A DNA stretch of 50,091 nucleotides from Chlamydiota bacterium (GCA_050049995.1 JASFVE010000002.1:1-50091); one strand, 5' to 3'. Numbered from the stretch's first letter, positions 12,662 through 43,984 are shown. Notes: generated by a model not told the origin, from the sequence alone. Numbers and translations are program-made.

Positions 12662-13303
12662 ATGGGAAATAAGATTCAAAGAAAGTTTGTCAGAGAAGAA
12701 GCCTATCTTAAAATTCGCAACTGGATTTTAGAAGGTGCTTTAGCGCCAAAAGAGAAGTTAAGAGATAAGGAATTAGCCGCTGAGCTAGGTGTCAGTCGAA
12801 CGCCTGTCAGAGAAGCACTGCTCAGGCTAGAAGAGGAAGGGTTTGTTCAAACAAAACCCAACTCATCCACTTTTGTAAGTTCTATTGATTTTCATAACGC
12901 ATTTCATCTTTATTCTATCGTTTGGACTTTAGAGAAATTAGCATTGAACCAGGCTTTTGGATCAATAACAGAATTTCATATTCAAAATATGATGCAAGCC
13001 AATGAAGAATTCTTAAAGCAAATGCAAGTCAATAATCGTTTAAAGGCTTTAGATGCAGATTATGATTTTCATGCAACTTATGTGAAGTTATCTGAAAATG
13101 CTGAACTGGAAAAAATGATTTCTGAGATAAAACGAAAACTCAAACGGCTAGATCTCTATTACTTCGACAAAGTTAACAATGCAGAGCTTTCTTATGAAGA
13201 ACACAAACACATTATAGAGGCACTACAGAAAAAAGACTTAAATGCAGCTTTAAGTGCTGTAGAAAAAAATTGGAAAAGTAGTTTTGCCCGGTTTGAAATT
13301 TGA
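12662..13303 (+). CDS. GntR-family transcriptional regulator (FadR/FCD subfamily)
   Basis: 213 aa with a winged-HTH LRDKELAAELGVSRTPVREALLRLEEEGFV and a helical C-terminal domain. Confidence 0.9.
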   Translation: MGNKIQRKFVREEAYLKIRNWILEGALAPKEKLRDKELAAELGVSRTPVREALLRLEEEGFVQTKPNSSTFVSSIDFHNAFHLYSIVWTLEKLALNQAFGSITEFHIQNMMQANEEFLKQMQVNNRLKALDADYDFHATYVKLSENAELEKMISEIKRKLKRLDLYYFDKVNNAELSYEEHKHIIEALQKKDLNAALSAVEKNWKSSFARFEI

Positions 13304-13314
13304 AGGAGAGCAAT

Positions 13315-13728
13315 ATGTTTAAAAACAAATTAGTAGCAGTGATGAATGGAAAAATTGAAACAGGAGTTATTCTGAATGCCTTAGCTCATATGTGTATAGG
13401 TTTTGGGGCAGAAATAGGAAAAGAAGATTTGCTCTTAACTGATTACATAGATGCTGATGAAAATACTCATCCTCATATATCTAAAATGCCATTTATTATT
13501 TTAAAAGCAAAGAACTCCAGTAAACTAAGCTCTTTAAGGAAGTCTGCTTTAGAATTAGGAATTAGATTTGTGGTTTTTACTGACACAATGACAATTGGGA
13601 CCTATCAAGAGCAATTGGAAAAAACAAAAAATACCAAAGAGACCGATTTAATTTATTATGGAATAGTTTTGTTGGGAGATTGGGAGAAAGTATCAGAATT
13701 GACCAAAAAGTTTTCACTTTGGAAGTAA
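13315..13728 (+). CDS. DUF2000-like protein
   Basis: AAGGAGAG lies 4 nt before ATG 13315. KLVAVMNGKIETGVILNALAHMCIGFG resembles the DUF2000 N-terminus. The gene starts 12 nt after the GntR stop. Confidence 0.45.
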   Translation: MFKNKLVAVMNGKIETGVILNALAHMCIGFGAEIGKEDLLLTDYIDADENTHPHISKMPFIILKAKNSSKLSSLRKSALELGIRFVVFTDTMTIGTYQEQLEKTKNTKETDLIYYGIVLLGDWEKVSELTKKFSLWK

Positions 13729-13751
13729 CTATAAAAACCTTCGAATTTGAT

Positions 13752-14627
13752 ATGAAAAATCTAACAATAGACAAATCACTTGTTAAGAAATTAATTTCTT
13801 CTCAATTTTCTCAGTGGAAAGAATTGTCTATTGAACCTGTTGCCTCAAGCGGGTGGGATAATCGAACTTTTCATTTGGGCAAGAGTATGTTAGTCCGTTT
13901 ACCGAGTGCGGTTGATTATGAATTACAGGTGGAAAAGGAGCATATGTGGTTGCCTAAATTGGCTAGCTCCCTTCCTCTTCCTATCCCCATTCCCTTAGCG
14001 ATGGGCAACCCAGAATATGGTTATCCCTGGAAATGGTCCATTTACCGATGGCTTGAAGGGGAACCTGCTTCTACTTCCTCTATAAACAATCTAGAAAAGT
14101 TGGCGGCTGATCTTGCGAATTTTTTAACTGCTTTATACAGAATTGACACAACAGGAGGGCCACCTCCTGGATTACATAGCTTCCATCGAGGAGGATCATT
14201 GTCGGTTTATAATACTGATGTGCATCAAGCTATTGCTTCTTTAAAAGATAAAATTAATGCTACAGCTGTAACAAGTACTTGGGAAAACGCTCTTGCAAGT
14301 TCTTGGAAAAATTCACCTGTATGGGTGCATGGTGATATCAGTGCGGGTAATCTTTTAATACAAGAAGGTAAACTTTCTGCTGTAATCGATTTTGGTCAGT
14401 TGGCTATTGGTGATCCAGCCTGCGACCTTGTAATTAACTGGACCTTATTTCATGGTAAAAGTAGAAAGATTTTTCAAGAGATGCTTTCTCTAGATAAAAC
14501 AATATGGTCTCGTGCTCGAGGCTGGGCTTTATGGAAAGCTTTGATTGTTGCTGCAGGCTTTACTAATCCAAATAACGCAGAATCAAAGCAGTGCTGGCGA
14601 ATTATCAAAGATGTCATTGCAGAATAA
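13752..14627 (+). CDS. aminoglycoside phosphotransferase (APH)-family kinase
   Basis: WVHGDISAGNLLIQEGKLSAVIDFGQLAIGDPACDL is the catalytic loop plus DFG-like motif of the APH/choline-kinase fold. ATG 13752 avoids overlap with the upstream gene. Confidence 0.8.
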   Translation: MKNLTIDKSLVKKLISSQFSQWKELSIEPVASSGWDNRTFHLGKSMLVRLPSAVDYELQVEKEHMWLPKLASSLPLPIPIPLAMGNPEYGYPWKWSIYRWLEGEPASTSSINNLEKLAADLANFLTALYRIDTTGGPPPGLHSFHRGGSLSVYNTDVHQAIASLKDKINATAVTSTWENALASSWKNSPVWVHGDISAGNLLIQEGKLSAVIDFGQLAIGDPACDLVINWTLFHGKSRKIFQEMLSLDKTIWSRARGWALWKALIVAAGFTNPNNAESKQCWRIIKDVIAE

Positions 14628-18481: not shown

Positions 18482-18991
18482 ATGGAAGACTGGCAAGGAG
18501 ATGCACATCCACATTTTAGAGAGGTTCTCGAAAAGGTATATTTACCTGCAGGACTAAGCATTTATAATTTTGAAAAGGAAATTGAAAGTCAAGAATATGG
18601 TGCCAGTCGTTTTAGGTTGAATAATCAAAAGATTGTATTTCGTGTGGCAAAGACTACTCCTAAAAAAGTTGGACAGTTTGTTACTTTATGGAAAAGGGTA
18701 GATGGCCGTATCCAACCTTTTGATATGGTCGACCCTTTCGATCTAATTGTTATTAGTATCCGCATCTCAACGCATTTTGGACAATTTGTTTTTCCTAAAG
18801 ATGTGCTGCATAAAAAAGGAATTGTATCCAAGGACAAAATAGGGGGTAAGCTAGCTATTAGAGTTTATCCTCCGTGGGATCAAGTAAATAGTAAGCAAGC
18901 GTTAAAAACACAAAATTGGCAGATTCCCTATTTTTTTGAAATCAAGGAAGAAGCAAATTCTTTAAGTGTTAAAAAACTATTTTCCTCATAG
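18482..18991 (+). CDS. MepB-family protein
   Basis: 169 aa. ESQEYGASRFRLNNQKIVFRVAKTTPKKVGQFVTLWKR...GQFVFPKDVLHKKGI matches my recollection of the MepB domain pattern. Confidence 0.6.
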   Translation: MEDWQGDAHPHFREVLEKVYLPAGLSIYNFEKEIESQEYGASRFRLNNQKIVFRVAKTTPKKVGQFVTLWKRVDGRIQPFDMVDPFDLIVISIRISTHFGQFVFPKDVLHKKGIVSKDKIGGKLAIRVYPPWDQVNSKQALKTQNWQIPYFFEIKEEANSLSVKKLFSS

Positions 18992-26094: not shown

Positions 26095-26577
26095 ATGGGA
26101 CCTTTATATTTAACTAAACCTCTAATGTATTGGGCTGCTTCAATAGGATTGTCTACAACAGTTGGAAACTTTATTGAGACCTCTTCAGAATCTACAATTA
26201 GTCAAATAGCTGGAAAAATCTTTCAACAACCTGCTTCTGTAGTTTTTTTAATGGCCTCAGCATCATCTCTTGATCTTGGGGATGTGGGTGCTGGTGTTGC
26301 TCTCATAACACCTCTCCTGACATATGGGATGCAAAAAATAGCTAATCTTAGTCACCTTCCAAAACTTGAAAAATTTTTTAGTGTTTTGGATCGAGTTTTG
26401 ACGATAGCAGGAAAGGTTATGAGCTGTGCTATAATAATTTTTGGATATTACACTTCAACGTCTATAGCAAGCCCATTAAGCTTTCTTTTCTTAGGTCTTT
26501 TTGCATTAAATGCTGTTTTATACACAAAGCAACTTACTCCTTATTTTTACTCTTCTAAAGACCAAGTCAACTCTTAA
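26095..26577 (+). CDS. small hydrophobic membrane protein (Inc-like candidate)
   Basis: 160-aa ORF with paired hydrophobic lobes. Confidence 0.5.
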   Translation: MGPLYLTKPLMYWAASIGLSTTVGNFIETSSESTISQIAGKIFQQPASVVFLMASASSLDLGDVGAGVALITPLLTYGMQKIANLSHLPKLEKFFSVLDRVLTIAGKVMSCAIIIFGYYTSTSIASPLSFLFLGLFALNAVLYTKQLTPYFYSSKDQVNS

Positions 26578-29832: not shown

Positions 29833-29900
29833 AGTTCTATTTTGAAAATAAAAGACTGCTCGTGAAACTAAAGTCTTAAAATTGAGAAAGGAGGAAAGAT

Positions 29901-29929
29901 GCGTTCAGAACTTTTGATTGGGATAATTT
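29901..29929 (+). repeat. recurrent intergenic motif copy K (extended form)
   Basis: gcgttcagaacttttgattgggataattt, preceded by aaggaggaaagat. It lies 51 nt upstream of the rhuM fragment ATG. Confidence 0.7.
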
Positions 29930-29979
29930 CGCTAAAAAGGCTATAACTTTTTCTAAAATTTATATCAGTAGAGGAGCCT

Positions 29980-30504
29980 ATGGATAGAGGAGAAGTAATA
30001 CTTTACACAACAGCAGATGGTCAGACCTCCATCCAATTGCGAATTGAAAATGGAAGTGTATGGTTAACGCAGTTAGAACTAGCAGAGTTATTTCAGACTA
30101 CCAAGCAGAATATTAGCCTTCACATCAAGAATATTTTGGAAGAGGAAGAGCTTGATAATTCAGTAGTCAAGGAAGACTTGACAACTGCATCTGATGGGAA
30201 ACGCTATCAAACTAAATTTTACAATCTCAGTATGATTCTAGCTGTTGGCTATCGGGTTAGTTCTCATCGTGGAACGCAGTTTCGACAGTGGGCAACAACC
30301 CATTTACAGGAATACTTAATCAAAGGCTTTGTAATGGATGATGCTCGATTAAAAGAGCCGAAGCCATGGGATTACTTTGACGAGTGGTTAGAACGAATTC
30401 GGGAAATTCGAGCTTCGGAAAAGCGATTTTATCAGAAGGTGCGTGATATCTATGCCACAGCTGTTGACTATAACCCGAAAAGTGAAGAGGCTCAGCTTTT
30501 TTTT
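29980..30504 (+). pseudogene. rhuM: RhuM-family virulence protein, 5' half only
   Basis: GEVILYTTADGQTSIQLRIENGSVWLTQLELAELFQTTKQNISLHIKNILEEEEL...YNLSMILAVGYRVSSHRGTQFRQWATTHLQEYLIKGFVMDD matches the RhuM N-terminal pattern. The similarity stops after ...EEAQLFF at a T8 run (30497-30504). As I recall, full-length RhuM proteins are roughly twice this length. Confidence 0.75.
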
Positions 30505-30934
30505 CGTCATCAGTGTAACGCCCATTTAGATCGTCAACTAGCACACCTCCAGCATAGCCTACCATATTGGAGGGTACACATCGAAGGGGTAAGTAATCTT
30601 TAAGAACATCATCAACAATTTTGTCGACCTCATTCCAAGTATGAATAAATAGATTATCGACTTGATCATCGTCGAGTGGGCTGGTTACTGTAATATGATC
30701 GGTCCTTTTGATAATATCCTTAAACAATTCAGTTCCCAGCTCAACACGCTCGAGATATAGACCCGGTGCCCATATAGACTTGAATCCTGAATAAAGATCA
30801 ACTCCGGAGAGATCACCAAGAGGGATAATCAGATTTTCTACTTGTCTTTGTTGATCTAGAGAATTGTGTTCCTTACTTAAGAAGCGATGTAATCCGGTGT
30901 CGAAGTAAAAGTAATTCATAGTACTAGCTTTCAT
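30505..30934 (-). pseudogene. 5' fragment of an unknown gene, abutting the rhuM fragment tail-to-tail
   Basis: The ORF from ATG 30934 reads about 140 aa of plausible protein (…DYLPLRCVPSNMVGYAGGVLVDDLNGRYTDDEKK). It then continues only as the antisense of rhuM (30320-30504). Confidence 0.35.
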
Positions 30935-30994
30935 TATATTTAATAATAATGAAAAAGCCTACCAGGTTTGATAGGGTTTAACAAGGTTTACTAA

Positions 30995-31015
30995 TGGAGG
31001 TGGAGAGAATCGAAC
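30995..31015 (-). repeat. displaced copy of the tmRNA 3' end (att-like direct repeat, distal)
   Basis: tggaggtggagagaatcgaac is identical over 21/21 nt, in the same orientation, to 36418-36438 (T-loop, T-stem 3' strand, acceptor 3' strand and discriminator of ssrA). Confidence 0.85.
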
Positions 31016-31425
31016 ACGTCATGGAAAAGACTCTTTTTGTTTTCCAAAAACTACTCATTTTCATAGAGAAAAACATAGGAAATTAAGTTCTGTAAATTTC
31101 TTATTCGAACTCGTTTTTTACGCAATTTTTACGCACTAAACTACATTAAATAGCAGTAAGACTATTTTTGCTTACTAGTATCTTAGATTATACCTTTGTG
31201 ACTCATGTGACGGATGTGACTTATAGAGAGTGTTTGTCACATTGTATTGATTTCATCACAGTTCAGAAAACTGTTTTTTTAACAAAGACCAAGAAGGAGC
31301 TATAAAAAGCTTACACGACAAATAATTTATTTAATTTTAGTTAATGAAACATTTTATTTTACTTAAATACCCTCTTACTTAAAATCTCCAACTTTCTAAA
31401 TTTTAAAAAATAAAATCTAATTTTT

Positions 31426-33675
31426 ATGGCTGCGCAAATATCACCAAGATTCTTCACTCCACCCAACGTAAGTCACAACGATATTGTCCATCAGTGGTCT
31501 CTTGAAAATGAAGCAAGAGTTGTTTCTATTGTCAAGCGGGATAAAGATCATATCTGTCATGTTTTCAACCAAGTATCTAATCAATTTACTGAAAGACCTG
31601 TAGCGAATTGTTATGAGAAATATTCATGGAAGAACTTAACTCCTGAAGTAGTTGATACTGACCAAGGGCCAATGTGTATATTAAAAAAGAAAGATGAAAG
31701 GCTTGTTTTAAATACTTCCATTAAAGTTGGAGAGGCTATTTGTAAAATATGGGTCTTGGGTTCTTCTCCCTATCTTAACAGAGCTCTTCTTTTGAACATT
31801 ACAAAAAATAGGGTAGCAGAATTAGATAGTTGTATTTTTTTTGATGAAGTAGAGCCATTTAATACTTATTTAACAGACCAAACTAGAAAATCACGATCAG
31901 TAGCTAGGTATTCTGTACATGCTACAACGATTTCAATGATTGGAGGAGCTATAGCAATACCTCTTGCGCTTGCAAATCCTATTGTAGGAATCCCTGTTAT
32001 AAAAACATTCGGTGCAGCATGGATTTCTTCTTTTTTAACATGTACAGGAGCCTTAACTTATGAGAGCTTCCATTCTGCTTCACTTGCTTCTTCGGCTATT
32101 GTGCAGCCTTTTATTGGAACGGATGGAACCCCAATAGATTTTGATTTTAAGCCAGTTCAATTAGAAAGTGAATTTGATGTTGGTGAGGAAATTCGAAAAG
32201 AAAGTTTTTTTCCAGTACAAAAATGGAGTGCCGAAGGCAAAAGAGTTGGGATAAGAATCAAAGATGGTGAGATCGGTTTTATTGTTGCTGATGAACGAAA
32301 TGGCAGAATGCTAAACGGAGGAACACATCAAATAGATCGAAGTGACATTGAAGAAAGAGTGATAGAAGTAGCTAATAGACTTTATTCTAATTGGACTACA
32401 AGATGGGGTGCTTGCGCAGCCAAAATCATTTATTGGTGGAATAAAAATAAAATACAACATGAGCAAGCTAATTTAAAGAAAAGCCTTGAGGAAGAAAATT
32501 TGCAAAGAGAATTTGAAAATATTTCAATTGGATGTTCTTATGTGCAAAAAAATAATATTCCACTGTTTTGTGAAATCAAAAGAAGATGGGCTCTTGGTAA
32601 TGATAAGGAGTTAGGCCTTGTTATGGAAAAAGGGACATTACGATGGTGGATATTTAAAATACATCAAAATCGTGGAATACTTGAAGAAACACAAAGTACT
32701 TTTAATGTGGAATATCCTACACTTGAAATGAGATTTCTTCAAAAGCTTGCTTCACCATTAAAAGAATATAGTAAGCGGACTCAATTTGTAGGATCTAGTG
32801 AATGTAGTCAAAGTACAAGAGAATTTCTTTATGCTTTAGGTGATAAGTCTCCAGAAGAACAGCTAGAAGATATTAACAGTTTTTTCATACGAAAAGCACA
32901 CATACTTAACTGCAACGGAGCTAAATTTGTTAGAGCAGTTATGGAGCCTAAGAGTTCCTTTTCTAGCAGAATGGATGAAAGGATTAAAATCACTGAGCAT
33001 AGCTGGGCTGTGACTTTAATTAGAGTAGGTAGCAGGAAGCAACAAGGTAAATGCAATGGAAAATCGCTTCCTGCTGGTTTAAAATATGAAAAACAGCATG
33101 CTGAAATTGTCATTGAAGGGATTGCTCATGAAAACAGAACCATGGCTTATATGGTCTTGGAGCAAGTCGGTAGGGAAGTAAGGGAAGTGAGAAGGGAAAT
33201 CAACTTAATAAAGGGGCAACCTTTTTCATTGATTTGTCATTTTAATGTTCCTGCTACAGGTAAAAATAATAATTCCATGTGTAGTCCTGGAGATGCAGTG
33301 GTTTTAATTGAAGATTACTCAAATCGGGACATAGATGATGAATACAGATCTCAAGTATGGAAGAGACCTAGAGATGAGGTTTTAAAAATGTTAGCCCAGG
33401 TTTACAAAGAGGCAAAAAAAGAAGTAGAAATTTCTTTATTACATACATGGGGAAAATATTCGATAGTTAATTTATTAAGACAAGGCAAAATAGATAGTTG
33501 TATAACGTGGTCATTTCCTAAGCTCGAAATGATGAGTATTCATTTAAACCCTACTGTCATTGGAAAAATAATTGGTAAAGAATGTGGATTTACGACACAC
33601 ACAGCTTCTAGCTATTTTACTTATTCAAAAGAATATCATGATAGTCATCCCCCAGAAGATGAAGGTTTATTATAG
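31426..33675 (+). CDS. large hypothetical protein with Inc-like bilobed hydrophobic domain
   Basis: 749 aa. About 48 hydrophobic residues in two lobes ([47 protein letters not shown], about nt 31921-32062) sit within an otherwise hydrophilic protein. Confidence 0.6.
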
Positions 33676-33683
33676 GAGAAAAT

Positions 33684-34655
33684 ATGGTAATAGATATTAA
33701 AGTTGCATTATTCAATGCAAGAACATTTGAAGATGTTTTGACGATAGCCCAAACGGCAAAAGGTCACGAAGGTCGAATATTTAGCAGCCCTTTTGTTACT
33801 GTTCGAGGATACTCAGGATATTTGCAGGAACATGATCTTGCAAATAAAGTAAAAGAACTAATTATGAGGAGAAAAGATCTTCCTTGGACAGAAGAAATTA
33901 GGGGAACTGGGAGGTCAATAGAAAGAGAAATTAAAAGGATTTACAGAGAGTCTTCTGGAAACAATGGATATAATGAGAATAATTATTTTACAGAGTTTAC
34001 AAGTCGATTATTTGAAAGCGAAAATATCGTGTTTATTGGAAATGCTGTTTTTGATCACTGTGTCAACAAATATTTAAGTGTTAAAAGGTTCTTTTTGTCT
34101 GATGGAAGAGGAGTAGATAAAGAGGAATGGTTAAATACTGATTACGAGCTTTTAAATCCAATAAAAGCTTATCATGGTGTTTCTGGACACCCCAATGGCC
34201 CAATTCCAAATACTGCTTATGTGGAAATTACCGATCATCCCACGGATCATGTTGATGGGCCTTTTCATCCCTCATCAATGGTATGTAGGGTTTTTGAAGA
34301 AAGGATACACACAAAAGTTTCTACCCTCATGAAGTGTATACAAACTTTTGAAGATTTTTTGTCCATTACAAGAAATGCTTCTATAAAGATGTCAATTTTA
34401 GGCTCAAGGTATGTTGAAGTTAGAGGTTGTGATGATTTCACTTACTTGGGCACTTTAGAAAAAAAAGTTACTGAGTTGCTAACTTTAGATGGCGCTTCAC
34501 CAATTCGAGAAGAAGTTGCAGAGCATTTGGCAAACCTTAGAAGGGAATATAATGAGTTAGAATCTAATTGTGATAACTTATTTACCCTTGGATGTCTAAA
34601 GATTAGATTTGTATTCATGACTATCTTTGGGAGATATTTATTTAGTCCCTCCTAG
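33684..34655 (+). CDS. hypothetical protein with two family-A N-terminal modules
   Basis: 323 aa. AGGAG lies upstream, and the gene starts 8 nt after the 749-aa [39 protein letters not shown] and [34 protein letters not shown] both match the module of 24509 and 25361. Confidence 0.6.
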
Positions 34656-34677
34656 AAAAGAAGGGACTTTAGACTTT

Positions 34678-35028
34678 TTAGCTTTCTTCTACTACTTCAG
34701 CTATCTCGACAGCTAGGTTGGCTGCGCTTTCAATATGCTGGTGGGCTTGAGTTTCAGCTTTTCTTGCAAAAAAAACCAAAACAGCATCAGTTCCAACTTT
34801 TGAAACAGAGGCAACTGCATCTGGACAGCAAGCATCAGCTGATGCATGTAATGGACCTTTTACCACATTATTAGTTTGAGAAATGACTGATGATACACCT
34901 TCTTTTGCGGCTGTTTCCACTCGTCTTATTAATCTAACTGATTCAGATTGTCCCTCTGCTTGTGGAGTATTGTCCCAATCAAATTCAATATCAGCCAAAG
35001 CTCCTGGTTGATTATTTACTGCTGCCAT
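34678..35028 (-). CDS. hypothetical acidic protein
   Basis: 116-aa ORF, Ala/Val-rich, which looks higher in G+C than its surroundings. Confidence 0.4.
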   Translation of the reverse strand: MAAVNNQPGALADIEFDWDNTPQAEGQSESVRLIRRVETAAKEGVSSVISQTNNVVKGPLHASADACCPDAVASVSKVGTDAVLVFFARKAETQAHQHIESAANLAVEIAEVVEES

Positions 35029-35460
35029 ATTTTACCTCTTTTGGTTAAAAGTTAATAAGGAATGGACATTAATACAGATTAATTGATTTTTTTTAAAATA
35101 AAAATAAATTAAATTATTTATTTTACAACAGCTCGTGATGTAAATAATTATTTTAATAATTAAAAAGACGACTATTGAATAAATAATGCATTTTTTTCTT
35201 TGTGTGCGTAAGAATTGCGTAATTTATTATTAAGAATCCAAATTATGATTGTAAATCAATGGTTTAAGTGTCTTAGTTAAGAGATATCTATTCTCTCCAC
35301 CTTGCATATATAATTAACTGAAATACAGAAGGGTTCAGTATGAATTTCTTATAATTCCGCATAAATTCCGCATTTTAAGAATAAATTGTCACAGTTTTCA
35401 CATCCGAAAAATTTAATTTTGTGACAAACCCTTCCTGGGAGGTCACGCCTGTCGCAGATG

Positions 35461-36231
35461 TCACGCGTTTGGTGAAGCTTGTGTTTTGAAATTAAAAAAA
35501 AGCTCAAGGAGATCAATAGCTTCGTTTGTTAGTGTCTGGTGAAGTGTAGTGGGTGTGAAGGTGATTAAATTATGATTTTCTCCTAAGTATTCAATATGAT
35601 GAACCGGTAAAGGGTGATACTTTTTAAGTAGAAAATGCCTTTGCTTAGTTGGAAAAGAATATTCGATATTTATAAGCTCCGGATCATTGGTCTTCCCAGA
35701 TAGACAGTGTTGTAATCCATATTCATTTAGTCCTAGGCTATCACAATCACCTTTCCCGAGGTAATCCTGTTGTCTGTGCGCAACGTGCTTATTTCGTAGG
35801 GGCATAAGTGCTAAAATAGAGGGAATCTTTAAAGCAATATCAGATTTTTTTATAAATTCACCAAACCAATCAGATGAAAAAAAGTAATATAACTGACCGA
35901 GTCGTCCGATATAGGCGACAGTTTCGTGTTTAGCATTATGATGATTTGTTTTTTTTGATAAGCGAGGAAAGTTAACGGGGTCTCTGTTGTTTCGTAGCAA
36001 ATTTATGTCTGCCATTCGTCTGCATCCAGCTTTTTCGTAGGTCCTAATTTTTTTGATATGGTATTCGAGTCCTTCTAGCATGTCTAAGACCCCAATTAAC
36101 TTTTCTTTGTGTTTTAAATAAAAAGGATGATTGGCGCAAAGAGCAAATAAATAAGCGGTTTTACGTCTAGGGTTCGAAAACTTCGAATAGATGTGTTTTT
36201 TTGGATTAGGATGTAATTCAAATTCTAACAT
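35461..36231 (-). CDS. hypothetical protein with HEPN-like RxxxxxH motif (AbiU2-like candidate)
   Basis: 256 aa. LRNKHVAHRQQD fits Rx4-6H and resembles the RdK.iAH motif I recall from AbiU2-type HEPN proteins. It occupies the tmRNA-proximal slot where an island integrase would normally sit. Confidence 0.3.
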   Translation of the reverse strand: MLEFELHPNPKKHIYSKFSNPRRKTAYLFALCANHPFYLKHKEKLIGVLDMLEGLEYHIKKIRTYEKAGCRRMADINLLRNNRDPVNFPRLSKKTNHHNAKHETVAYIGRLGQLYYFFSSDWFGEFIKKSDIALKIPSILALMPLRNKHVAHRQQDYLGKGDCDSLGLNEYGLQHCLSGKTNDPELINIEYSFPTKQRHFLLKKYHPLPVHHIEYLGENHNLITFTPTTLHQTLTNEAIDLLELFFNFKTQASPNA

Positions 36232-36380
36232 AAGCCAAAAAGTATAAGAGCATAGAGGGATGCGGTCAAAAGGTTTTATACTGCAGTTTCGTCTAGTGTA
36301 GTGCGTAAATAGTGCGTAATTTTGTTTTATGCGGCTGAATTTCTAGGTGTGAATTTTTTGTTTTATGTCGCTAAAAACAA

Positions 36381-36408
36381 AAGGCTTCAGTCGTAAGACT
36401 GAAGCCTT
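36381..36408 (-). terminator. rho-independent terminator of ssrA
   Basis: On the minus strand, AAGGCTTCAGTC-ttac-GACTGAAGCCTT (12-bp stem) is followed by TTTGTTTTTAG, starting 10 nt after the tmRNA 3' end. Confidence 0.75.
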
Positions 36409-36417
36409 GATTTGGGT

Positions 36418-36784
36418 TGGAGGTGGAGAGAATCGAACTCTCGTCCTTAACAAACTACAATACCAATGACTACATGCTTATCTCCTTTATTAGTAATCGG
36501 TCTTGATGAAAGGAGCCCCACTTGGGACCGATTTAATCCTCGTTGTCTCGGATTTTCTTACCAGAGGATCAGAGGTAAGAGTCCAAACCCAGAAACATGA
36601 CGGTAGTGACTAAAACTCCAGGTCAGATTTTAGGCTACCGGGCAATCCAGACTGTTAGGTCCTTATGCCGCTAACGCGTATTCTTGGTCAGCAATTATAT
36701 TTTAATCGGCTTTTAAAGAGGCCAACCGATCAACCTCTGCATGCCACTGATACATAATTTGAAAGTCGAAACCTGTTCACCCCC
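36418..36784 (-). ncRNA. ssrA: tmRNA (SsrA)
   Basis: The minus strand starts GGGGGTGAACAGGTTTCGAC and ends GAGAGTTCGATTCTCTCCACCTCCA. The acceptor stem GGGGGTG/CACCTCC includes the G3:U70 alanine identity pair. CCA is not encoded. An internal tag ORF reads ...GCT GAC CAA GAA TAC GCG TTA GCG GCA TAA (ADQEYALAA stop) at 36692-36663. Confidence 0.92.
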
Positions 36785-43904: not shown

Positions 43905-43984
43905 TATTTCCAAATAATCTCTTGCATTAAAGTTAATATTTTACTTACGTTTTGTGGTTTTTTCTCACCAACTTATACAAAGTT

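Follow-up and report, generated by a model that had tools for sequence, protein, structure and literature searches.

An integrase-less island between direct copies of the tmRNA gene end in an uncultured chlamydial bacterium

How did the last 21 nucleotides (nt) of a gene come to stand a second time, more than five kilobases away from the first? This question is raised by a 50,091-bp stretch of DNA (hereafter the window) from an uncultured member of the Chlamydiota, recovered from a Joint Genome Institute (JGI) wetland metagenome (3300042731), in which the end of ssrA, the gene for transfer-messenger RNA (tmRNA), recurs in direct orientation on the far side of a segment with four open reading frames (ORFs). 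Islands in tmRNA genes are textbook matter, the established mechanism for islands in tRNA and tmRNA genes being a site-specific insertion that regenerates the target gene, and the Chlamydiota are usually regarded as poor in mobile DNA. Our comparisons indicate that positions 31016-36417 are very probably DNA that entered ssrA at its 3' end through site-specific recombination, catalysed by a member of a tyrosine integrase family that is widespread in environmental Chlamydiota.

The displaced ssrA end in the window and in related loci

The 21-mer TGGAGGTGGAGAGAATCGAAC has exactly two copies in the window, both read on the plus strand, at 30995-31015 and 36418-36438, and no further copy was found in the 50,091 bp at up to two mismatches, with an expectation by chance of 0 (100 shuffles). 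ARAGORN, which reads the tag peptide as ADQEYALAA, and Rfam RF00023 agree that the copy at 36418-36438 is the true 3' end of ssrA. In ssrA orientation, the repeat comprises the G of the last T-stem pair, the T-loop TTCGATT, the 3' strand of the T-stem (CTCTC), the 3' strand of the acceptor stem (CACCTCC), and the discriminator A, and alignment shows that identity stops sharply on either side of these 21 nt. The initial annotation, which had reported the two direct copies, the gene end, and the differing sequence beyond it, was therefore accurate in these respects. At the boundary of the segment remote from the intact target gene, the window carries a displaced, directly oriented copy of the 3' end of that gene. 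Logan contigs from the source run span both island junctions with zero differences, and the gene for a 749-aa protein inside the island occurs in identical context on two independent contigs; because the Logan contigs cross both junctions and the second contig keeps the gene order, misassembly can be excluded. A relative of about 96% identity is present in a groundwater run (X2), as short contigs that break at the att core.

Two sets of loci, denoted by L numbers, were compared with the window: 80 loci selected by their isoleucyl-tRNA synthetase (IleRS), and metagenome loci added later by a scan baited with the hairpin of the arm described below. The nearest IleRS, 74% identical, belongs to a Parachlamydiales metagenome-assembled genome (MAG) in the one-genome-per-species GTDB set, and none of the full loci compared exceeds about 77% nucleotide identity across ssrA and ileS. 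At about 30 chlamydial loci, as in the window, ssrA lies divergently upstream of ileS, which is followed by lepB and a gene of the CT021 family; the side of ssrA opposite ileS is variable among relatives. A tblastn search with the four island proteins gave no match in the 80 IleRS-selected loci, so that the island genes are missing from the ssrA locus in about 40 chlamydial relatives, whose ileS side is syntenic. The segment is absent at the same locus, with conserved flanks, in relatives of at most 74% IleRS identity, and in none of the relatives examined do the same genes stand beside ssrA without repeats, an arrangement that the initial annotation had proposed as the mark of an ancestral gene order.

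Related loci carry displaced ssrA ends of their own. Extra copies, in the same orientation, were found downstream of ssrA at 12 of about 39 IleRS-selected chlamydial loci, some of which have two or three. After the metagenome scan, 38 loci had at least two cores, delimiting 53 inter-core intervals of 175-7589 bp, and one to four extra fragments were present per locus in the approximately 38 related loci; the distance between the cores in the window, 5423 bp, falls at the large end of this range. The concern of the initial annotation that the 21-mer might be a dispersed repeat was not borne out, every extra copy in the relatives lying downstream of ssrA in the same orientation. The displaced fragments split sharply into a class of 14 nt (n = 68) and a class of 21-24 nt (n = 16), to which the window belongs. 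One relative (L022) presents the full architecture of the window with other cargo, namely, a YhcG/DUF1016 nuclease, Cass2, and a P-loop protein, and in another (L051) one junction has been displaced by a later insertion.

Element arms and the associated integrase of relatives

The sequence adjoining ssrA inside the island (the proximal, type 1 arm) belongs to a family that an nhmmer model found next to ssrA or to displaced cores in more than 100 places. The arm in the window is 78-82% identical to those of L005, L026, L031, L040, and L041, compared with 59-68% for the ssrA body and 66-68% for ileS, and the locus nearest by ileS (L001) has the least similar arm (61%), so that arm similarity does not track phylogeny. 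Because the arm is conserved above ssrA and ileS and against phylogeny, it moves horizontally and is DNA of the element rather than native flank. Its 12-bp hairpin now terminates ssrA.

Both ends of the island are further linked by a tandem-heptamer block, TTACGCA-N4-TTACGCA, of which the window has three copies against 0 expected. The distal and proximal blocks lie within a 41-nt inverted repeat (I1), whose halves at 31118-31158 and 36279-36319 are 80% complementary, and the arm model also matches the distal side (31163-31118, minus strand). Each 21-nt repeat is thus backed, about 100 nt inside, by a block, the two in inverted orientation, which from their sequence and placement are putative arm-type integrase binding sites. 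An excised circle would read block, about 98 nt, 21-nt core, about 103 nt, and inverted block, the layout of an attP with putative arm-type sites. Among the relatives, a distal block in the orientation seen in the window, 77-123 nt inside the fragment, accompanies 9 of the 16 fragments in the 21-24-nt class and 0 of the 68 in the 14-nt class; counting either orientation, at 77-141 nt inside, the former figure rises to 13 of 16. The existence of two fragment classes suggests that attP and integrase form two subfamilies, which differ in the side of the T-loop on which crossover takes place.

The enzyme associated with these arms is found in the relatives. A local phmmer search, seeded with E. 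coli IntA, XerC, and lambda Int, identified in L031 (1988-3064) a 358-aa tyrosine integrase (Pfam PF00589, Phage_integrase, E = 1.6e-27), which lies about 280 nt past the type 1 arm and is read in the same direction as ssrA; the E. coli ssrA-intA pair exemplifies this classical placement. L108, L145, L008, and L171 have close homologues (E = 1e-108 to 1e-193), and L121 and L157 retain remnants of the same family; the R...HxxR...H...Y residues are legible in the ssrA-type sequences, whose nearest solved relative is the HP1 integrase. An island-encoded tyrosine integrase is present in L031, L108, L145, and L171 and lacking in the window, where neither an integrase ORF nor a coding remnant was detected in the 50 kb by tblastn (best E > 0.9), phmmer, or Pfam. 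The window does retain the region that precedes the gene: positions 35279-35398 are 91.7% identical over 120 nt to L108 (7233-7352), directly upstream of the L108 integrase start, and a multiple alignment includes weaker matches at the corresponding place in L031 and L171. This homology ends approximately at the integrase start codon, and the internal heptamer block at 35204-35222 comes next. Because the upstream region survives without its coding sequence, the integrase gene appears to have been deleted from the window.

The footprint includes a stretch of 13-16 nt, AGGTGGAGAGAATAG (window 35287-35302), that repeats the att core in inverted orientation and has a counterpart in L108 (7326-7341), just upstream of the integrase start; L031, L145, and L171 lack it. 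This stretch could serve as an integrase operator or could be due to chance. The features of the island and of the adjoining DNA are collected in Table 1.

Table 1. Coordinates of the island, its arms and cargo, and the adjoining cassette in the window
Feature	Position	Strand	Basis or remark
Older neighbouring cassette	29845-30994		Decayed junction, truncated RhuM gene, and second arm subtype
Decayed arm hairpin and core	29845-29899		blastn of about 30 arm-plus-core junctions, 77-86% identity; weak nhmmer match
RhuM gene, 3'-truncated	29980-30585		Residues 1-202 of 341
Second, short arm subtype	30948-30994		Terminator-like hairpin 30958-30975
Distal att core, displaced ssrA 3' end	30995-31015	-	T-loop to discriminator; exact match, 0 expected
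Distal arm	31016-31160		Carries heptamer block and left half of inverted repeat
Distal tandem-heptamer block	31118-31136		TTACGCAATTTTTACGCAC
Left half of 41-nt inverted repeat	31118-31158		103 nt inside distal repeat
Cargo module A	31317-35120		Block common to the L175 tRNA-Leu element; blastn vs L175 9895-13711
749-aa orphan protein gene	31426-33675	+
323-aa orphan protein gene	33684-34655	+
116-aa ORF	34678-35028	-	Counterpart of L175 132-aa ORF; tblastx/blastn, 34776-35120 vs L175 13372-13711
Internal tandem-heptamer block	35204-35222	-	GTGCGTAAGAATTGCGTAA on plus strand
Integrase upstream-region footprint	35279-35416	-	Match to L108; integrase ORF missing
Inverted core-like 16-mer	35287-35302		AGGTGGAGAGAATAG; within footprint
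Degenerate heptamer pair	35355-35372		Within footprint
256-aa protein gene (cargo module B)	35461-36231	-	Co-oriented with ssrA
Proximal arm (type 1), about 146 nt	36272-36417	-	nhmmer, 164 bits, model from 9 loci
Right half of 41-nt inverted repeat	36279-36319		In proximal arm
Proximal heptamer block	36301-36319		TTACGCA-N4-TTACGCA(C); in proximal arm
Two 20-nt direct repeats	36320-36339, 36356-36375		In proximal arm
12-bp terminator hairpin	36381-36408		Terminator scan; T-run on ssrA strand
Proximal att core	36418-36438	-	Final 21 nt of ssrA; exact 21-mer
ssrA (tmRNA), intact	36418-36784	-	ARAGORN; Rfam RF00023, full length, 150 bits

Cargo, history, and neighbouring cassettes

On the mechanism established for such islands, the attP of the incoming element would reproduce the final 21 nt of ssrA, crossover in the T-loop would rebuild ssrA from element sequence and provide it with a new terminator hairpin, and the original 3' end would be pushed to the far side, leaving two direct repeats. 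The island in the window is, moreover, composite and decayed, a module B being fused near the integrase start codon to the inner block of a module A. Module B consists of the proximal arm, the 256-aa gene, and the integrase upstream region, and module A of the 749-, 323-, and 116-aa genes with the distal arm. The internal heptamer block and the distal block (31118-31136) are 95% complementary (I7), and the former, we propose, is what survives of an older element's proximal arm. That two-armed element A would have spanned the blocks at 35204-35222 and 31118-31136; a younger element B, with its arm, the 256-aa gene, and an integrase, would have inserted in series with it, and a later deletion would have taken the integrase and distal end of B, the middle core, and the hairpin part of the arm of A. 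Two serial insertions and a deletion appear to be the simplest history. The initial description of the locus as a fixed, decayed ssrA island thus holds for the ssrA island and for the loss of its integrase; the word "fixed" is not supported, both cores being perfect and both arms retained. Without an integrase of its own, the island would move only through a cognate integrase acting in trans and would otherwise be stuck.

The four ORFs lie where the initial annotation placed them, and searches of Pfam, NCBIfam, PADLOC, and PHROGs upheld its statement that none belongs to an integrase, excisionase, or phage family. The same searches gave no family match of any kind for the 749-, 323-, and 116-aa proteins, and no match to the cargo proteins was obtained in sequence searches of the PDB. 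A counterpart of module A is located at a different target gene. In L175 (a CG10 Chlamydiae MAG), genes for 738-, 323-, and 132-aa proteins lie directly 3' of tRNA-Leu(taa), and blastn aligns them with module A at 83% nucleotide identity over 1978 nt, with flanking segments at 74-77%. They form part of an element of about 11 kb or more (L175 9640-20938; also in L176), which also encodes a primase with a Zn ribbon and a DUF5906/VapE-like helicase and has three small ORFs; its tyrosine integrase shares 47% identity with the ssrA-type integrases. Because module A is shared with this tRNA-Leu element, it has passed between elements that target different genes. The L175 element resembles a satellite or an integrative mobilizable element (IME); the contigs of both L175 and L176 end just past the integrase gene, and the size given is accordingly a lower bound.

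Among the module A proteins, the 749-aa protein has one close homologue (P0002) in 5.8 billion proteins. A full HMMER search added four distant homologues, which makes an orphan family of six, and otherwise gave weak partial matches; none of these proteins has a Pfam domain. Alignment reveals invariant His558, Glu564, and Cys692 (in the motif DSCITW) in the C-terminal domain, which, judged by these residues, might be a thiol hydrolase. A chlamydial Inc protein would be marked by a bilobed hydrophobic domain of some 40-60 residues, by type III secretion, and by a place in the inclusion membrane. The label "Inc-like" had been given to this protein in the initial annotation; the hydrophobic stretch at approximately residues 164-215 that is its sole basis does exist by hydropathy in P0001 and P0002, but it is missing in four of the six family members. 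Comparison of window 31426-34655 with L175 10001-13197 shows 83% nucleotide identity for the entire 323-aa gene and for the C-terminal third of the gene for the 749-aa protein; in the N-terminal two thirds, this protein has diverged much further (47% amino acid identity overall), a pattern that could reflect a recombination mosaic or diversifying selection. The 323-aa gene is probably co-transcribed with the 749-aa gene. Its product is highly conserved, with two homologues at 88% and 69% identity, and contains two internally similar segments of about 60 aa, matched by an internal DNA repeat (D3); an AlphaFold2 (AF2) model of it was discarded (predicted local distance difference test [pLDDT] 40, from a 3-sequence alignment). 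A 5.3-kb contig of the source metagenome (P0040) carries the 69%-identical copy beside a GNAT acetyltransferase gene, with no adjoining 749-aa homologue. The 749/323 pair is an orphan two-gene module with a possibly host-directed function, and the suggestion in the initial annotation that the cargo serves host interaction or defence is conjectural.

The 256-aa protein of module B has 35 homologues, all unannotated. The protein has an invariant motif, LMPLRNKHxAHRQQD, a HEPN-like Rx5H pattern in which R146 and H152 are invariant or nearly so in 22 sequences, and which falls, as a conserved Rx4-6H motif, in a region that is helical in the AF2 model. The Pfam profile HEPN_AbiU2 matched residues 129-158 below threshold (E = 0.047, 13.6 bits against a cut-off of 26.8), and no significant HEPN profile or fold match and no PADLOC match was obtained. 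Because a good AF2 model (pLDDT 81.6) had no Foldseek match in the PDB or BFVD below E = 0.39, the protein was not filed as HEPN, and its identification as a HEPN-like RNase toxin or defence gene is tentative, with the odds somewhat against it. Judging from related cassettes, the gene is most likely of a stress, defence, or toxin type. A 62%-identical homologue in L157 occupies the same position beside the arm, next to DUF6088/AbiEii genes and an integrase remnant, and another member of the family lies downstream of a tRNA-Thr gene, beside an HTH (helix-turn-helix)/Fic pair. A census of 122 ORFs between cores in the related arrays shows that such units carry accessory genes, often with a toxin-antitoxin or defence character: GNAT acetyltransferases (6), AbiEii (5), AbiEi/DUF6088 (5), RhuM (3), and DUF1415 (3), with two each of the YhcG nuclease, APH, Fic, DUF4238, and methyltransferases. 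Integrases were rare among these ORFs.

To the left, the island is adjoined by an older cassette with a decayed junction, and because of this cassette, the island is the ssrA-proximal and youngest unit of an array of at least two. Positions 30948-31006 are 88% identical to a displaced junction in L148, and a contig of groundwater run X2 has an intact arm and a 14-nt core joined to window position 29904. The truncated RhuM gene is 90% identical at the nucleotide level and 87% at the amino acid level to its counterpart in L029; because the IleRS sequences are just 64% identical, the gene seems to have been transferred recently. Apart from the junction at 29845-29899, no arm or core remnants were found to the left of 29.8 kb. 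Some genes further away in the window have relatives in ssrA arrays. A trio of GntR/FCD, DUF2000, and APH genes (12662-14627) is flanked by ssrA-end fragments in L004 and closely precedes one in L001, and a MepB-like gene (18482-18991) is near ssrA in L034 and L050; in the window, both lie 18-24 kb from ssrA with no repeats left around either, and the whole stretch from 12 to 31 kb may be an eroded array. A 160-aa ORF (26095-26577) has two copies of about 60% identity downstream of ssrA in L001 (636-1127 and 3710-4204). On the other side of ssrA, an 1832-aa ORF with a TTG start (43952-49450) gave one weak tblastn match in the related loci (25% identity, L021).

Mobility, known systems, and significance

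Several points weigh against an integrase-mediated insertion or against parts of the scheme proposed here. The insertion is deduced from comparison with distant relatives, the best IleRS identity being 74%, and the GC fraction is 0.32-0.37 within the island and in its flanks alike. The arm hairpin served as the bait for the metagenome loci, and frequencies in that set are therefore biased. The integrase-binding role of the heptamer blocks is conjectural, and the serial insertions with a deletion are one of several histories that fit. No excision or circle joint was seen in the source-run contigs, a weak negative, as these were contigs and not reads. The lack of a compositional contrast would also agree with an ancestral arrangement in which the 21-bp repeat arose by chance or local duplication, or with a chimeric contig joined at the repeat, but either origin is extremely improbable considering that shuffling produced 0 chance matches, that the repeat exactly matches a structural unit of tmRNA, that the fragment-plus-arm pattern recurs in dozens of loci, and that independent contigs, as well as Logan contigs, span both junctions. 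Other mechanisms were rejected. An arm-hairpin scan of viral contigs returned 0 matches, leaving a phage origin unsupported; a Tn7-like or other transposon insertion does not agree with a duplication of 21 nt that is a gene end in place of a short target duplication; and the repeat is ssrA, not the dif site of a Xer/dif element.

An insertion that has lost its integrase could nevertheless be alive. The island could be a cis-mobilizable element with functional attL and attR, for which the integrase is supplied from elsewhere in the genome or by a co-resident element, a possibility that we regard as real and yet rather unlikely. It would account for two perfect 21-nt cores and for the retention of both arms with their heptamer blocks, and it is in keeping with displaced arms that remain near consensus in the integrase-less arrays of relatives (164 bits in L004; three copies in L034); the same idea has been put forward for integrase-less members of the Dehalococcoides ssrA arrays (PMC3146451). 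The counterevidence consists of weak negatives: no integrase lies within the 50-kb window, no source-run contig is at least 80% identical to the L108 integrase, and no excision joint appears in the source contigs, in which the depth over the island is even, at about 8x. The island is similar to the cis-mobilizable elements (CIMEs; PMC5704250, PMC6323972) in that attL and attR flank a segment without recombination or transfer genes (no integrase, excisionase, or transfer gene was found in the island), in its kinship with integrase-encoding elements, and in its tandem placement with other elements (accretion). In relatives, arm and core of the same kind are linked to a conserved integrase, which might recognise the att sites of the island. 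It differs from CIMEs in that no conjugative partner element is known for it and in that the footprint of the deleted integrase is still visible.

The shortness of the units in the related arrays invites comparison with integrons, and the ssrA end could be a platform at which short circular cassettes, each a gene with an arm of about 150 nt and a core, are captured singly by a resident integrase, instead of being remnants of larger self-sufficient islands. Many of the 53 inter-core intervals (175-7589 bp) hold a single gene, every unit ends in the same arm and core, integrases are rare among the 122 array ORFs, and the cargo is accessory or of toxin-antitoxin or defence type (GNAT, AbiE, RhuM, YhcG nuclease, Fic, APH); the arrays are like those of integrons in their head-to-tail, short, mostly single-gene and promoter-poor units with a conserved recombination site at the end. 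However, the integrase is a generic PF00589 enzyme found at varying positions inside elements, with none in the window, and a fixed intI/attI/Pc platform is lacking; the repeat is part of an RNA gene of the host; and the cassette-end hairpin scores as an intrinsic terminator rather than an attC-type folded site. Module A, moreover, is also found in an 11-kb element that has both an integrase and replication genes of its own, so that at least some of the cargo descends from larger self-sufficient elements, and the window shows a deletion footprint. Taken together, these points make capture of single cassettes quite improbable.

The insertion preferred here has its closest described parallel, as far as the array is concerned, in the ssrA-specific genomic islands (ssrA-GIs) of Dehalococcoides, which have a 20-bp ssrA repeat, insert in or near the T-loop, stand in tandem downstream of a single-copy ssrA, and include members without an integration module that were suggested to be cis-mobilizable or fixed (PMC3146451). 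Like them, the chlamydial units form tandem arrays, enter ssrA at or close to the T-loop, have additional conserved sequence adjoining the repeat, and include members that lack an integrase. The two differ in their arms and cargo and in the enzyme, which in Dehalococcoides is a CcrB-like serine recombinase, DsiB, encoded in a six-gene module, whereas the chlamydial enzyme is a tyrosine recombinase of PF00589, with the HP1 integrase as its nearest structure. Compared with islands that tyrosine integrases form at tRNA and tmRNA genes, as defined by Islander/TIGER (PMC4383910) and exemplified by E. coli CP4-57 at ssrA with intA, the locus has a target gene regenerated by the element, a displaced 3' fragment in direct orientation at the far end, and an identity block that starts from the T-loop, and intact relatives (L031, L108) have the integrase beside the target gene and co-oriented with it. 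Unlike typical members, the copy in the window has no integrase, measures 5.4 kb, is composite, and belongs to an array of still smaller units, and the host is a lineage of the obligate-intracellular type. A literature search for this phylum retrieved only the Protochlamydia tRNA-Gly island Pam100G (PMC548262); the search was limited and is no proof of novelty.

The island is therefore of an ordinary genomic-island kind, in a bacterial group where such islands are hardly described. With its relatives, it makes up a coherent family of ssrA-specific integrative elements in the Chlamydiota, characterised by a defined core, by arms that are conserved, by arrays of small accessory cassettes, and by a cognate tyrosine integrase, and the 749-, 323-, and 256-aa orphan families can now be flagged as mobile accessory genes. 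A bolder proposal, that the ssrA ends of environmental Chlamydiota are a shared gene-capture site, at which a dedicated tyrosine integrase acting in trans still mobilises integrase-less cassettes with a conserved arm of about 150 nt and a core of 14 or 21 nt, the island in the window being live, appears unlikely to us. If it were true, obligate intracellular bacteria would be swapping toxin-antitoxin, defence, and host-directed genes at this site and trading cargo with tRNA-Leu elements. Cargo modules move between elements with different targets (ssrA and tRNA-Leu), and the integrase and att sites of this family open horizontal gene flow among intracellular bacteria to concrete study.

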